DNA from: a virus
Lineage: Duplodnaviria; Caudoviricetes
Virus record (IMG/VR): IMGVR_UViG_3300031555_004271
Span: 1-64,000 of that record
Length of the DNA: 64,000 nucleotides
Reading direction: 5' to 3' (one strand)
Shown here: positions 19,952 through 47,748 of the stretch, one piece after another
Layout of the letters: each line of letters opens with the position of its first letter
Position numbering within the stretch: the first letter of the stretch is position 1
Notes under the pieces: generated by a model
Database searches by the model: none
Seen by the model: the letters and a program-made list of their open reading frames with translations, nothing else
Told to the model about the DNA's origin: nothing
Translations under genes and position numbers: made by a program

Positions 19952-20296
19952 ATGACACTTGCTCAATACAAGACTCTTATGGATGGTTTAGATGTCAATA
20001 AAGATGTTGCATTTATCTTTACTGCTGAAAATACTAAAATCATGCCAGAGCGTTATCCAAAGATCGAAATTGATGAAGCAAATGAACTATTAAAAGCATA
20101 CATTATCCATCCAGGTTCTAAGACTGATAAGCCAATCTATACATTATCTTTCGTATGTACATTAGATTCTGTATTTGCTATTCAGTTTAGAATTAGAGAT
20201 GGTGTATATACTACTAATGAAAAGGGTGAAAAAGTTTTTACACCTAGTCTACAAGAACAAGTTGATGATGCATACTACATCGGACGCTATAGCTAA
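19952..20296 (+). CDS. Hypothetical late protein, 114 aa
   Basis: aaggagg RBS, own promoter and terminator. Confidence 0.8.
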   Translation: MTLAQYKTLMDGLDVNKDVAFIFTAENTKIMPERYPKIEIDEANELLKAYIIHPGSKTDKPIYTLSFVCTLDSVFAIQFRIRDGVYTTNEKGEKVFTPSLQEQVDDAYYIGRYS

Positions 20297-20328
20297 TTCT
20301 TAAATCAAAAACTTAAACCAACTTAAAT

Positions 20329-20375
20329 GAACCTTATACCAATTTAGAATATTGGTATAAGGTTCTTATTTTTTC
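20329..20375 (+). terminator. Intrinsic terminator
   Basis: gaaccttataccaat-ttagaat-attggtataaggttc followed by a T-rich tail. Confidence 0.8.
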
Positions 20376-20378
20376 AAA

Positions 20379-20394
20379 TTTAGAATATATATTT
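20379..20394 (-). promoter_or_regulatory. Putative early promoter pointing to array B
   Basis: minus aaatatatattctaaa, same as the 14453 and 63551 motifs. Confidence 0.45.
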
Positions 20395-20432
20395 CAAACT
20401 ATCTTTAATTCGAAAAACTCATTTTTTCTTTT

Positions 20433-34621: not shown

Positions 34622-34651
34622 AATCTCCTCTTTATTATATTTATTTCTATA

Positions 34652-34685
34652 TTAATGATATATATCTATAAAGTCTTAAAATGCG
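34652..34685 (-). promoter_or_regulatory. Putative early promoter with an upstream CGCATT box
   Basis: minus cgcatt-N15-tatatatcattaa, same spacing as at 47703-47736. Confidence 0.6.
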
Positions 34686-34688
34686 AAA

Positions 34689-34728
34689 TTTTAGAGTATA
34701 ATCCTTTAATTGGATTATACTCTAAAAA
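34689..34728 (-). terminator. groEL terminator
   Basis: tttagagtataatcc-tttaatt-ggattatactctaaa. Confidence 0.8.
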
Positions 34729-34734
34729 TACTTT

Positions 34735-36474
34735 TTATCTACTCATAGGATTTGTAGTAATAAACTGATTACTAGTAGCTAATAGACCAATGATAGAGAA
34801 GCTAGCTTTAATGATCTCGATGTCAGTCTGAGCGGAGTTAATTACATTAGTTTCATTATCTTTCTCATATCTACGTAACTTTACATTATAGACCTTATCT
34901 TCATTCAAACAAGTATCCATAATCTTTTCAGCTTTATCATTGGAAATATGAGCATTATCTAATACAGTTAAGAAAGATTTCTCAAATGCATATAGAATCT
35001 TTTCAATGACGAAAGTAATAGCACTCATGAAACTATCTCTATCATCATAAATGTTACTTAGATAATTTAAACGATCATCATTTACAGTATCTTCAATGAT
35101 AACATCTTCATACTTCATAATTAGTTTAGGTAGAATCATGTTACCACCGACTACATAACCATACTCAATTGAAGAACGACATGCATATACAGCGTCTTCC
35201 ATTAGGAACTTTCTAGTAGTTCTTTCCATTTCAGAACCACCACCAACATAGAGAGTTGCCATAGAAGATGTTAAAGTAGCAATACGCTTCTTAATTTGGA
35301 ATAGATCCTTTTCACGATTATCATGAACTTCGTCCATATGGTATAGTCTTTGATATTCGTCTTCTAGATTTTTTATATGTTCCTGAAGTGCATTTGCATT
35401 AGAAGTATAACCATCACCGTCAATAAATGTAGTTCTTAGATCATCACCCTTGATTCTCTTACATCTACCTAGATCTTTAATAGAGAATTCTTTGATATCT
35501 TCCATACCATTATACTTATCATAGTAGTGACAACCTAATGCTAGAGCTAAATCCTCAAATCTTTCTCTACCATTTTTAGTAGAAGCATCAATGTCGATAG
35601 CGACTACTGGAAGGTGTTTATTTTTTTGTAAATTAGCATCAAAGAAAGACTTAACAGAACTAGTATAATTAGTAGCAATTAGTACTAAAGGAATATTCTG
35701 TCTGATACATACAGTATCCATAACACTAGCAATAAAATCGATTTCATCATCAGACATGATATCATTCATCATGAATACTAAAGCATTTTCATACTCTACT
35801 GAAATACGATCACTTTGGTTGGCCATTCTCGCATTAATCCAACCTCTAGGTACTTCAATACCTTGTACTTTCTCGAAATAGTCCTTACTAGACTTACCAT
35901 TTTCTAGATTAATGAAACCATAACGACCGATGGACTTGAAAATATCACAGAATAGTTTACCAGATTCTTGATTGTTATTGCAAGAAATAGTGGCAATTTT
36001 AGTAATAGTTTCATCAAAATTATCATCAGTAATTTGGGTTGCATTATCTAGAATCATAGTTTCAAACTTTTCAGATAATACAGTGAAAATCTCTAGAATA
36101 TCCTGTGGAGCTAACTCTAGTTCTTTTGAAATTTCATTAATAGAATTGAATAACTCATTAGCAATAATGACTGAAGAAGTACTACCATCACCAACAGTTC
36201 TAACTAGGGACTTAGAAATCTTCTTAACGATATCTAATACAGTACGAGAGATATCATAATTGTAGTTCATAGCCTTTAAGATAGTATAACCATCTTTAGT
36301 CATATAGTGGTCACCAAGTCTATCTTCAATGATAGTAGTAGAACCATATGGACCTAGAGATTTACTAACTTCTTGTGCTATTTTGTTTAAAGTAGACTTA
36401 ATCTTTTCTTTAGCTTCAGTTTCATCTATAATGTTAGAATTAAGAAATATGTTATCGATTGTTGTTTGAGCCAT
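34735..36474 (-). CDS. groEL: GroEL-like phage chaperonin, 579 aa
   Basis: SLGPYG, TKDGYTIL, VGDGSTSS, LYVGG, VVGG motifs. Confidence 0.95.
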   Translation of the reverse strand: MAQTTIDNIFLNSNIIDETEAKEKIKSTLNKIAQEVSKSLGPYGSTTIIEDRLGDHYMTKDGYTILKAMNYNYDISRTVLDIVKKISKSLVRTVGDGSTSSVIIANELFNSINEISKELELAPQDILEIFTVLSEKFETMILDNATQITDDNFDETITKIATISCNNNQESGKLFCDIFKSIGRYGFINLENGKSSKDYFEKVQGIEVPRGWINARMANQSDRISVEYENALVFMMNDIMSDDEIDFIASVMDTVCIRQNIPLVLIATNYTSSVKSFFDANLQKNKHLPVVAIDIDASTKNGRERFEDLALALGCHYYDKYNGMEDIKEFSIKDLGRCKRIKGDDLRTTFIDGDGYTSNANALQEHIKNLEDEYQRLYHMDEVHDNREKDLFQIKKRIATLTSSMATLYVGGGSEMERTTRKFLMEDAVYACRSSIEYGYVVGGNMILPKLIMKYEDVIIEDTVNDDRLNYLSNIYDDRDSFMSAITFVIEKILYAFEKSFLTVLDNAHISNDKAEKIMDTCLNEDKVYNVKLRRYEKDNETNVINSAQTDIEIIKASFSIIGLLATSNQFITTNPMSR

Positions 36475-36513
36475 ATCTAGACTCCTTTCTTTTCTTAATC
36501 TATATGAAAAAAT

Positions 36514-36554
36514 AAAAAAAGAAACTGCCTTGTTCCCAGCAAAGCAGTTTCTTT
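36514..36554 (-). terminator. Intrinsic terminator 40 nt upstream of groEL
   Basis: minus aaagaaactgctttg-ctgggaa-caaggcagtttcttt-U run. Confidence 0.8.
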
Positions 36555-36560
36555 ATAAAT

Positions 36561-36754
36561 AGAAAAGTATACTTAGAGAAGTCACTCAAGTATATTTTAA
36601 TTATAACCTTCTCCAGAACTATAACAAAATATCTTCTCTAAGTAGTACTTTCTTTGTAATAAGATAAGTGTTATTTGAAAATATACATCCGCCATCCCAC
36701 TGAAATCAAGATATATAATTCTCAAAAAACTTATATTCGTCTCTATCTTATTAC
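36561..36754 (-). ncRNA. Candidate structured RNA with two long hairpin domains
   Basis: Arms 36744-54/36656-66, 36710-26/36674-89 and 36633-53/36561-81; G.U pairs favour the minus strand; early motif at 36759-72. Confidence 0.55.
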
Positions 36755-36758
36755 ATCT

Positions 36759-36772
36759 TTAAAATATATAAC
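36759..36772 (-). promoter_or_regulatory. Putative early promoter
   Basis: minus gttatatattttaa. Confidence 0.45.
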
Positions 36773-36794
36773 TATAAATCATTATAATACGTTT

Positions 36795-37136
36795 TTAACG
36801 AATCATAATTTTTATACAGTTTTCATCTATAACCAATGTTTTAAAAATTTCATTACATTTTTTAGAATTATTAAAAAATTCAATCACATTTCTTATTTCA
36901 CCATCAGACACTTCTAAAACAATGTCTTTAAACTTATTACAATTATTGTTATAAATGGTATAACCTTTAAAACCTTCCAATACTTTATACTTAATAGATC
37001 TTTCATCTAATAATAAAAGTAATTCGATAAACTTAAAAGCTTCATTTAAAAAAAGGGTAGCTTCTAATAAGTTTTCAACCTTGTTATCATCTACCCATGT
37101 AGTAAGTACTTTAAATTTTTTCAATTTTGGATTCAT
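36795..37136 (-). CDS. Hypothetical protein, 113 aa
   Basis: aggtga RBS. Confidence 0.7.
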   Translation of the reverse strand: MNPKLKKFKVLTTWVDDNKVENLLEATLFLNEAFKFIELLLLLDERSIKYKVLEGFKGYTIYNNNCNKFKDIVLEVSDGEIRNVIEFFNNSKKCNEIFKTLVIDENCIKIMIR

Positions 37137-37227
37137 TATTTTGAATCACCTGACTTTCTGTAATTTTATCAATCATCAATAAATGGTATTTTCGCCTAAT
37201 TACAGAAATCAAAATGAATGAAATTTT

Positions 37228-37496
37228 TTAACGTTGATTGTAGATTTTATTCATATCACCATAAGCTTTATCCTGTTCGATCTTAGCCATGGCTTGTGCT
37301 TTTGCCTTTTCTTTTTCTTCTAAGAGTTTAGTTCGTGCTTCACATATTTCTTTTAAAAAAGCAATCTCACTATTAAGAACTTCGTCTAAAGAAATTTGTC
37401 CTGCAAACAGGTCTAAAACTGAGACAATGAAGTCACTATCAGCTGCTCTTGAAAGTTTATAACTTACGTTGCCGTGCTCGTCCTGTTTATTCGTGT
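37228..37496 (-). CDS. Start-less open frame: probable -1 frameshift extension of the upstream gene
   Basis: About 90 open codons (YTNKQDEHG...QISLDEVLNSEIAFLKEICEARTKLLEEKEK...) in the -1 frame after CCTTTTT at 37497-37503; no usable start codon. Confidence 0.6.
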
Positions 37497-38984
37497 AAAA
37501 AGGATTGTTTCGATATCTACAGGAATGCCAGGTAGCTTAGTCTTACAGTGAGAACAAGTTACATTATGAATTTCATAATCAATCTTATACTTACCTAGCT
37601 TCTCCTCAATAGCATTCTCTAACTGTTCGCCATCCTTATTGGATAACTTCAGTAGGATATTTAACAATCTAGCCTTATCAGCAACCTCATAATAAGTTGC
37701 CTTACCAGTATTATATGTCTGAGCTAAGTCTAGCATGTACATATGAGAGATGAATAACATAGCACTAAATGCATCAGCATACTCTTGTAGAGTCTGCTGA
37801 TTAGAGATCTTAAGTAGAGATAGATGATCATGTAGAGAAGGAGTAGATACATCTACGATAATCTTACTATCATTTAACATAACTCTTTCATCCTTATGAA
37901 CAATAGATGCAGCAACTAATTCTTCACCAGTCTTAATAGAACCAATGATTTCATCACGCTTCTCATAAGTAGCTCTATCTCTAACTTCTACTAGAGATTG
38001 GTTGTTTACAGTTACAGAGGTAGTTTTACCACACTTACCACAGGTAATATCAAAATCATTGTTATCAATGAAAGTTTGACAATAAATACCAAATAGTAAA
38101 GTAGATAGATCATTAAAGGATGTAATCTTAAGCCAGTTATTGAAATCAGGCTTAGGGATAGACATGGTATGGATCTTGTTATAAACAGTTCTATATAACT
38201 TTTCTCTCATCTGGAAAATATTACCATCAGAGTTATTAATAGCATTCTTTTCAGCTAGAGTTAAACCAGACATATTTGCTGTATAACCAGACTGACAACA
38301 AATAACAGTAAATGTAGCAACATTATTATTGAAAACTAGATCAATATCCTGTGCTTGCTGAATTGCAGGTTTATTAGTAATAGTAATCTCATTTAGATCA
38401 ACTGTAATCTTATCCATAAATGCTAATTTAGGATTATTACCTCTAGAAGAGACTCTGTTATTAGCATAACTATGATAGATATACTTTTCTTCATTTTTAG
38501 ATTGAGTTACAGTTTCTTCATTTAATGCTTCTTCTACAGATTTATCAGAAGATTCCTCTTTAGAAAAATCAATGTCATCTGCATTAAAATCAATACCGAA
38601 ATCAATATCGTTATGGATATAATTGGCTTCTTCTTCAGGTTCTTCATCAAGATTTCCTAATACAGAACTAAGTCCTGCAGATTCATCCATAGGAATATCT
38701 GAAATATCTAAAGTAGATTTAACATGAGTTTCATTAACTTTAGCATCAATTGAAGTGACATTGGCTGTTATTACACCATTTGCTTCTTTAGTAACCTCGT
38801 CTCTTACAGCATTTAGTTTAGCTAAAATCTGTTCTTTATTACCAGATTTTAGTAGTTCGTCTAAAGACGCTTCTTCAATCTTAGTTTCTCTTGCAGAAAG
38901 TGTATTATCATCAATCAAAATATTGTCAATTTTAGAATTTTCATTTAGAGTATCATTAAACTCTACTGGAATATTTTCAATCAA
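37464..38984 (-). CDS. Baseplate hub / tail assembly chaperone (T4 gp26-like C-terminal domain)
   Basis: Two CxxC pairs (ITCGKCG, VTCSHCK), acidic N-terminal half, downstream of a gp25-like gene. Confidence 0.55.
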   Translation of the reverse strand: MIENIPVEFNDTLNENSKIDNILIDDNTLSARETKIEEASLDELLKSGNKEQILAKLNAVRDEVTKEANGVITANVTSIDAKVNETHVKSTLDISDIPMDESAGLSSVLGNLDEEPEEEANYIHNDIDFGIDFNADDIDFSKEESSDKSVEEALNEETVTQSKNEEKYIYHSYANNRVSSRGNNPKLAFMDKITVDLNEITITNKPAIQQAQDIDLVFNNNVATFTVICCQSGYTANMSGLTLAEKNAINNSDGNIFQMREKLYRTVYNKIHTMSIPKPDFNNWLKITSFNDLSTLLFGIYCQTFIDNNDFDITCGKCGKTTSVTVNNQSLVEVRDRATYEKRDEIIGSIKTGEELVAASIVHKDERVMLNDSKIIVDVSTPSLHDHLSLLKISNQQTLQEYADAFSAMLFISHMYMLDLAQTYNTGKATYYEVADKARLLNILLKLSNKDGEQLENAIEEKLGKYKIDYEIHNVTCSHCKTKLPGIPVDIETILFTRINRTSTAT

Positions 38985-39057
38985 AATCTTTTACCTCCTC
39001 TTTAAAATAACAAGAATTATTTTAGTGTTACTATATACTTTTTATTATAAAAAATTC

Positions 39058-47451: not shown

Positions 47452-47463
47452 TATAGATTTGTT
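47452..47463 (-). promoter_or_regulatory. Putative late promoter AACA-N6-TA
   Basis: minus aaca-aatcta-ta. Confidence 0.55.
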
Positions 47464-47490
47464 ATTCTCTATACTTTTCTGTATAAAGAA

Positions 47491-47522
47491 ATAAGAGAAG
47501 AGGGGTTACCTCTTCTCTTATT
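47491..47522 (-). terminator. Intrinsic terminator
   Basis: ataagagaagagg...cctcttctcttat. Confidence 0.8.
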
Positions 47523-47532
47523 ATAATTTTTA

Positions 47533-47616
47533 TCACAAAGGTCTCTCACTTACATAATTTACATCTAAAATATCTTGAGTACGGTTTGTTTTCATATATA
47601 GGGATGGTGTATACAT
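47533..47616 (-). CDS. 27-aa peptide MYTPSLYMKTNRTQDILDVNYVSERPL
   Basis: aaaggag RBS 9 nt upstream, early promoter and terminator flanking; below the track cutoff. Confidence 0.55.
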   Translation of the reverse strand: MYTPSLYMKTNRTQDILDVNYVSERPL

Positions 47617-47702
47617 TTTAAAACACTCCTTTGTAAACTAATGTTCCTATAGAGTTAAAGAACTAGTTTACGAATTTTGAAAGGTTAACTCTTAGTAACT
47701 CT

Positions 47703-47736
47703 TTAATGATATATAGATATAAAGACTAATAATGCG
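47703..47736 (-). promoter_or_regulatory. Putative early promoter with a CGCATT box
   Basis: minus cgcatt-N15-tatatatcattaa. Confidence 0.6.
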
Positions 47737-47748
47737 TAAAGATTCTTC

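Follow-up and report, generated by a model that had tools for sequence, protein, structure and literature searches.

Results

The groEL locus and its neighbourhood

The stretch of DNA analysed here, 64,000 nucleotides long and referred to below as the window, is part of an IMG/VR source record of 85.8 kb with 28.7% G+C. It carries on its minus strand a gene for a groEL-like chaperonin (Pfam Cpn60_TCP1, E 8e-29), the product of which is 42% identical to that of g228, the groEL of the Bacillus jumbo phage AR9/PBS1. The neighbourhood is syntenic with that of AR9: a 506-aa gene matches g231 (40% identity), a 113-aa gene matches g229 (BLASTP, 30% identity, E 5e-5), and the segment under study lies between this g229-like gene and groEL. 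The g229-g228 spacing in AR9 is only 41 nt, within a late operon; groEL is a late gene in that phage, and the only late start site mapped for the g232-g227 block precedes g232, with no site ahead of g228. A late-type motif (AACA-N6-TA) is also present in the window upstream of the g231 homolog, at 39029.

In the window, the g229-like gene and groEL are separated by an intergenic gap of 320 nt (36475-36794), and four elements follow one another on the minus strand from 36797 to 36507, namely a promoter, two hairpins (H1 and H2) and a canonical terminator. The features referred to below are the following.

36795-37136, minus strand: g229-like gene, the upstream neighbour (113 aa; context only)
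36755-36797, minus strand: early-type phage promoter, with CGTAT at 36791-36787 and the core TTTATAGTTATATAT, which ends at 36764 and is followed by an N9 spacer
36754, minus strand: predicted transcription start, G (+1)
36656-36754, minus strand: hairpin 1 (H1)
36697-36726, minus strand: weak promoter-like stretch beginning TTATATATCTT, in the 5' arm of H1
36598-36696, minus strand: open reading frame of 32 codons from ATG 36696 (42 codons from TTG 36725), spanning the 3' arm of H1 and the 5' arm of H2
36563-36652, minus strand: hairpin 2 (H2)
36507-36554, minus strand: intrinsic terminator
34735-36488, minus strand: groEL-like chaperonin gene with its Shine-Dalgarno sequence AAAGGAG (36488-36482); coding sequence 34735-36474 (context, outside the cassette)

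An early-type promoter and its predicted start

The promoter overlaps the stop codon of the g229-like gene. The motif emerged from a BLAST comparison of the insert with its relatives, in which only the first ~47 nt were matched, at several places in a 320-kb genome; across the five relative records, the promoter part alone recurred. An earlier note on this DNA had drawn attention to an early motif at 36759-36772, and this turned out to be the core of a genuine and over-represented bipartite promoter motif, CGYAT-N16-TATATAT, which occurs 24 times in three related genomes (G000, G002 and G004) and not once in the reversed control. Scored with a position weight matrix, the local promoter reached 38 bits (third in the genome) and its core 24.7 bits, the second of 171,574 positions. 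Alignment of the 24 promoters showed that the core is followed by nine nucleotides and then usually by G or A.

This layout resembles the early promoter consensus of AR9, AAATATATATTAT-N6-G(+1) (PMC5312081), and the traits of AR9-type early promoters are present, that is, an extended AT-rich core, a constant distance to a G/A start and repeated occurrence before early-type small genes. From the spacing found in AR9, where TATATATNNN is followed by N6 and then by G, and from the promoter alignment, we infer that transcription would start at G36754, which is also the base at which the closing stem of H1 begins. Taking AR9 as the model, this transcription would be early and carried out by the virion RNA polymerase.

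Among the 15 early-type cores of the genome, 13 have an ORF of at least 25 codons with a Shine-Dalgarno sequence downstream, mostly 23-83 nt past +1, and the promoter described here is the only one of the 15 that is followed by a strong terminator ahead of any credible ORF. The poorly initiated 32-codon ORF mentioned in the earlier note does exist, but it has no Shine-Dalgarno sequence, whereas other early genes show an ORF with one 23-83 nt past +1, and no homolog of it was found in G000, G002, G004 or G005. We therefore judged the 32/42-codon frame to be non-coding.

Two hairpins and a terminator

That a structured RNA could be formed upstream of groEL was borne out by the folding analysis. 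For the minus strand of the intergenic gap, -79 kcal/mol was obtained (z -5.4), and the predicted transcript (36754-36510), folded as a single sequence, gave -71.8 kcal/mol and three domains, for which z-scores were each obtained against 200 dinucleotide shuffles. Both hairpins had z-scores of about -4.3: H1 gave -25.0 kcal/mol (z -4.35) and H2 -25.7 kcal/mol (z -4.24). In a genome-wide scan of 100-nt windows in 10-nt steps, in which H1 was not framed exactly, the regions of the terminator and H2 were in about the best 1%.

The two domains largely have the shape previously proposed. For H1, the anticipated 11-bp stem, asymmetric bubble and inner stem correspond to a closing stem of 12 pairs (11 Watson-Crick plus one G.U), a 16-nt/6-nt asymmetric internal loop and a G.U-rich inner stem of 9+8+1+5 pairs (~23), which ends in a G-rich apex, GUGGGAUGGCGGAUG. 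H2, described before as a long stem plus an inner stem, consists of a lower stem of 7+12 pairs and inner helices of 8+5+3 pairs, with 10 nt bulged out on the 3' side and GGAGA as the apical loop. The further proposal that several G.U pairs restrict the fold to this strand was correct for one hairpin only. G.U pairs number 12 on the minus strand vs 2 on the plus strand, and H1 accounts for 8 vs 0 with no A.C mismatch, so that the strand-only fold holds for H1, which on the plus strand yielded just -11.4 kcal/mol (z -1.8). In contrast, H2 (-21.4 kcal/mol on the plus strand) and the terminator fold on either strand.

The terminator, identified by a terminator scan, has a stem at 36554-36518 with 15 pairs, a 7-nt loop (CUGGGAA) and the U-tract UUUUAUUUUUU, and folds with -18.7 kcal/mol (z -6.05). 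It lies at +201 to +248 from the predicted start, and 43 nt separate the end of its stem from the groEL ATG (36474), in agreement with the distance of about 40 nt given before. The relatives have a hairpin of different sequence as its positional counterpart.

The groEL leader

The Shine-Dalgarno sequence of groEL is located ~30 nt beyond the terminator. A groEL promoter between terminator and ribosome binding site was recognisable in none of the alleles, and the late-type motif AACA-N6-TA was not found between the terminator and groEL of the window. As groEL lacks its own promoter beyond the terminator, the latter must be leaky, at least for the late polymerase, and some early read-through into groEL is likely as well.

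The ribosome binding site has a small structure of its own, a 5-bp hairpin (window 36472-36486, minus strand; L002:2988-3007) in which the Shine-Dalgarno part GAGUC pairs with GGCUC of codons 1-2/3 and the loop contains the AUG. Its conservation extends to relatives that carry the insert and to others that lack it, L002 being among the latter.

Control of the chaperonin by a thermosensor or an attenuator, as had been put forward in the earlier note, gained no specific support from this analysis. A FourU/ROSE-type thermosensor of groEL is not supported, as the Shine-Dalgarno sequence is beyond the terminator, outside the element, and its own 5-bp hairpin is common to the insert-less L002; the groEL context is in fact the same in four insert-less relatives. 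As to attenuation, the sole alternative pairing overlaps ~5 nt of the 15-pair terminator stem, and no convincing antiterminator was found. No riboswitch or leader family matched in the Rfam search of 35500-38000. CIRCE is the operator through which HrcA acts on bacterial groESL; the inverted repeat present here, with its 51-nt spacer and differing sequence, was not accepted as such an element. In Firmicutes, a hairpin placed at +1 is a known 5' stabiliser, and in this clade hairpins at +1 recur among early 5'UTRs.

Searches for homologs of the insert

Similarity searches yielded no counterpart of the insert. Over 35500-38000, Rfam returned only sub-threshold noise at E values up to 10, and no 6S model was among these matches; over the whole window, no family reached its gathering score. 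There was no insert match by blastn against 50,697 phage records. A covariance model of H1 plus H2 found nothing in G000, G001, G002, G004 and G005, and in the two complete genomes of relatives neither this model nor BLAST located the element. Exact and gapped word scans of IMG/VR and GTDB genomes gave either nothing or chance palindromes, and a copy of TGGGATGGC in G002 was dismissed as it is inside a gene. Searches for tRNA and tmRNA in the loci around both cassettes (L006 and L004, the latter described below) were negative.

Alleles at the g229/groEL junction

GroEL proteins 84-86% identical to that of the window are encoded in five metagenomic phage contigs, two of which are complete genomes (299 and 320 kb). 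Still closer groEL proteins exist (P0001, 94%; P0010, 93%; P0002, 89% identity), and a search by groEL in metagenome contigs and genome contigs found none of the loci of these closer relatives. Comparison of the junction disclosed three alleles: empty, with the cassette of the window (predicted RNA of 245 nt), and with a different cassette in L004 (predicted RNA of ~460 nt).

In four close relatives (L001, L002, L003 and L005; groEL 86% identical), about 232 nt comprising the promoter and both hairpins are absent, and the stop codon of the g229-like gene is followed by a hairpin, the ribosome binding site and groEL within about 90 nt. The extra ~232 nt of the window are placed just before the position that corresponds to the hairpin of these relatives. 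The fifth relative, the 299-kb genome L004, carries an unrelated cassette of ~500 nt (L004:2424-3000, identical in L026:1924-2500), in which an early-type promoter is followed by a Shine-Dalgarno sequence and a 6-codon mini-ORF, ~400 nt of non-coding sequence, a strong terminator and groEL. The non-coding part has 39-45% G+C vs 25-30% in the genome, all its frames are broken, and searches of it against Rfam and for tRNA and tmRNA were negative; the only matches to a 17-mer of the L004 RNA were chance ones in coding DNA. A C-rich stretch in it, CCAUCCCAUCC, is complementary to the loop of its own terminator. From its sequence, the L004 cassette is a candidate for a large early structured RNA.

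What the two cassettes have in common is limited to the promoter and one 10-mer, and their overall similarity was not above that of shuffles; the promoter motif is repeated genome-wide, and the two terminators are unlike each other. Both cassette-bearing alleles have long-stem terminators with long U-tracts, whereas the hairpin of the cassette-less allele has a poorer U-tract. The presence, absence and replacement of the element among relatives indicate a derived, dispensable and lineage-specific cassette, located in a slot that was occupied on at least two occasions.

The shared 10-mer, GUGGGAUGGC, is at the H1 apex in the window and in the terminator loop of the otherwise unrelated L004 cassette, and a shared word of equal information was obtained in only 2 of 2000 shuffles, although the word was noticed post hoc. 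All four GGA triplets of the RNA of the window are at or adjoin the three hairpin apices, a position in which 8% of 315 genome hairpins have one (also a post hoc observation). The number of GGA is not enriched, as 22% of shuffles had at least four, and no CsrA gene was found in G000, G002 or G004. We offer a shared apical binding motif as a lead only.

Other early-type units of these genomes

Several other arrangements were observed around early-type promoters. In G002 (L039:68-300, that is, G002:266854-267086), the 5'UTR of an early gene contains, downstream of the early promoter, two long and near-perfect hairpins of ~230 nt; this double hairpin is strand-symmetric (z -4.5 and -5.0), is missing at the G004 ortholog (L045), and its similarity to the insert of the window was not above that of shuffles. 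At 47460-47742 of the window (minus strand; L047), an early promoter precedes a 27-codon ORF with a Shine-Dalgarno sequence; next come a strong terminator, a late promoter of the form AACA-N6-TA and a gene. In the G004 ortholog of this unit, the promoter, the terminator and the late promoter are retained, with unrelated filler between them. At 20300-20418 (minus strand), an early-type core is directed, in antisense, at the 3' end of gene 19952-20296 (plus strand) and straight into the terminator hairpin of that gene, with no ORF for ~500 nt. Finally, the region just past groEL (34650-34727, minus strand) consists of a 16-pair hairpin and, after it, a strong early promoter (39.7 bits) from which several small genes in a row are driven; there the terminator precedes the promoter, the reverse of the order in the cassette upstream of groEL.

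Discussion

We believe that the best explanation of these results is an early transcription cassette, specific to this lineage, that was inserted into the late operon of baseplate genes and groEL in an uncultured AR9-like jumbo phage and whose product would be a structured RNA of ~245 nt, and we put the probability of this explanation at about one half. The promoter lies upstream of the strong terminator, not after it, and the segment between them probably yields a non-coding RNA of ~245 bases. That close relatives have either no cassette or a different one gives it the appearance of a swappable early RNA cassette. Against this stand the single sequence known, the four close relatives without the element and the palindrome-like character of H2 on both strands. 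The stand-alone phage sRNA of the earlier note fits the architecture (a promoter, +1 at H1, no ORF with a Shine-Dalgarno sequence, a strong terminator), and as a transcript it is a prediction from the sequence.

Under this explanation, transcription would begin at G36754 from an early promoter of the AR9 type, used presumably by the RNA polymerase that the virion injects, and the nascent RNA would fold at once, H1 forming at the very 5' end and the second long hairpin, H2, after it. The strong intrinsic terminator ~245 nt downstream would end most transcripts, so that the main product may be a discrete, highly structured and probably stable non-coding RNA at the beginning of the infection. A minority of read-through transcripts would add some early groEL expression, and the late transcripts coming from the upstream operon would carry the same hairpins internally. 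If the RNA is functional, it most plausibly binds a protein or another RNA through its G-rich hairpin apices. One elaboration is that the g229/groEL junction is a hotspot at which early structured RNAs are swapped, these being functional decoys or sponges with a common G-rich apex for a host or phage factor (e.g. a CsrA-like protein that binds GGA loops or a regulatory RNA rich in C); we regard it as quite improbable.

The remaining explanations grant the insert a different role or none. It could be a neutral by-product of modular shuffling, in which a promoter-bearing fragment and palindromic DNA were caught in a recombination-prone slot, the RNA being without a role even if transcribed. The absence from relatives and from two complete genomes implies that the element is dispensable and could be neutral, and the replacement at the same site, the lack of insert homologs in every collection searched and the strand symmetry of H2 point the same way. 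The symmetric double hairpin inserted in another early 5'UTR of G002, and absent in the G004 ortholog, indicates that palindromic insertions arise in these phages with no obvious RNA role, and the PeSL cassettes of T4-type phages are a precedent (PMC2839356, PMC4122927). Yet H1 folds only as RNA of the transcribed strand, with its eight G.U pairs and no A.C mismatch, the base of this hairpin is the predicted +1, and the terminator is intact and strong; neutrality, although a serious rival, we hold to be rather unlikely. The main rival is a long structured 5' leader, in which the inserted early promoter provides groEL with early as well as late expression by partial read-through and the hairpins serve only as stabilisers or processing sites; this too we consider unlikely. 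It would account for the terminator having to be read through, given that no allele has a recognisable groEL promoter between it and the ribosome binding site; AR9 g228 also lacks a mapped start site of its own within the g232-g227 late operon, 'continuously expressed' genes with both early and late promoters do exist in AR9 (PMC5312081), and hairpins at +1 are recurrent in the early 5'UTRs of the clade. However, early expression of groEL does not need ~200 nt of hairpins, the promoter has a strong terminator after it and not before it, and the stronger terminators of the cassette-bearing alleles suggest insulation rather than coupling.

The earlier note had also proposed a 6S-like decoy, in which the internal loop of H1 and a promoter-like arm would mimic an open early promoter and sequester the phage or host RNA polymerase. 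The stretch in the 5' arm of H1, beside the asymmetric internal loop, does have some resemblance to the core, with 7.4 bits, a score equalled or bettered by 31 of the 171,574 positions. Nevertheless, this is weak compared with the 24.7 bits of the true core, the upstream element is missing from the stretch, which aligned to the promoter no better than shuffles did, and which is fully base-paired, not open. Moreover, both the MFE and the centroid structures consist of two hairpins and a terminator and not of a rod with paired termini, and the Rfam search up to E 10 gave no 6S match, so that we find such a decoy highly improbable. Just as hard to credit is a small hydrophobic early protein of 32-42 residues to which the hairpins would be incidental: the frame is open from ATG 36696 or TTG 36725, but the other genes of the phage have strong Shine-Dalgarno sequences and this one has none, its start codon is buried in the H1 apex, and four related records contain no homolog.

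The early RNA cassette that we favour can be compared with several known systems. In jumbo phages 201phi2-1 and phiKZ, sRNAs of intergenic and 5'UTR origin arise where a terminator lies within 250 nt of the start (PMC11512511), and both sequence traits of these sRNAs from promoter-proximal termination, a phage promoter and a terminator within 250 nt with no coding sequence, are found here. The likeness extends to the promoter being of the phage-polymerase type, to the position ahead of a structural or late gene and to the structured nature of the RNA. The 201phi2-1 and phiKZ sRNAs, however, were defined by long-read transcript ends and one of them is conserved across genera (PMC11512511), whereas the RNA described here is predicted only, belongs to a Firmicute-type, AR9-like phage and is missing from its closest relatives. 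With the early units of AR9 (PMC5312081) the cassette shares the extended AT-rich core, TATATAT(N3)-N6-G(+1), and the syntenic g231-g229-groEL context; it differs in the additional CGYAT 16 nt upstream of the core, in that AR9 has 41 nt and no early unit between g229 and groEL, and in that AR9 early units encode proteins.

In the PeSL (promoter-early stem-loop) elements of T4-type phages (PMC2839356, PMC4122927), an early promoter and a terminator stem-loop likewise bracket cargo that is swapped at one site. PeSLs, however, are short conserved repeats on either side of small ORFs and are read by the sigma-70 polymerase of the host, whereas here the promoter is the sole repeated part, the terminators are not alike and the cargo does not code for protein. 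6S RNA is in the same size range and has an internal loop beside promoter-like sequence, but the cassette matches it neither in sequence nor in structure, without the rod with paired termini and the open central bubble. As in the CsrB/RsmZ sponges, there are several hairpins each with an apical GGA, although GGA occurs only four times in 245 nt, which is not above composition, and no CsrA partner is known for the phage or its host.

Taken alone, as one sequence, the cassette is a modest and ordinary example, and it says nothing special about the regulation of the chaperonin. If it is transcribed, it would add to the accumulating evidence that small structured RNAs are produced during the first minutes of an infection by giant phages that possess RNA polymerases, and it would suggest that RNA genes are gained, lost and replaced in these phages in the same way as accessory protein genes. 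The series of alleles at a single junction (empty, 245-nt and ~460-nt) constitutes a ready comparison for the role of such RNAs.
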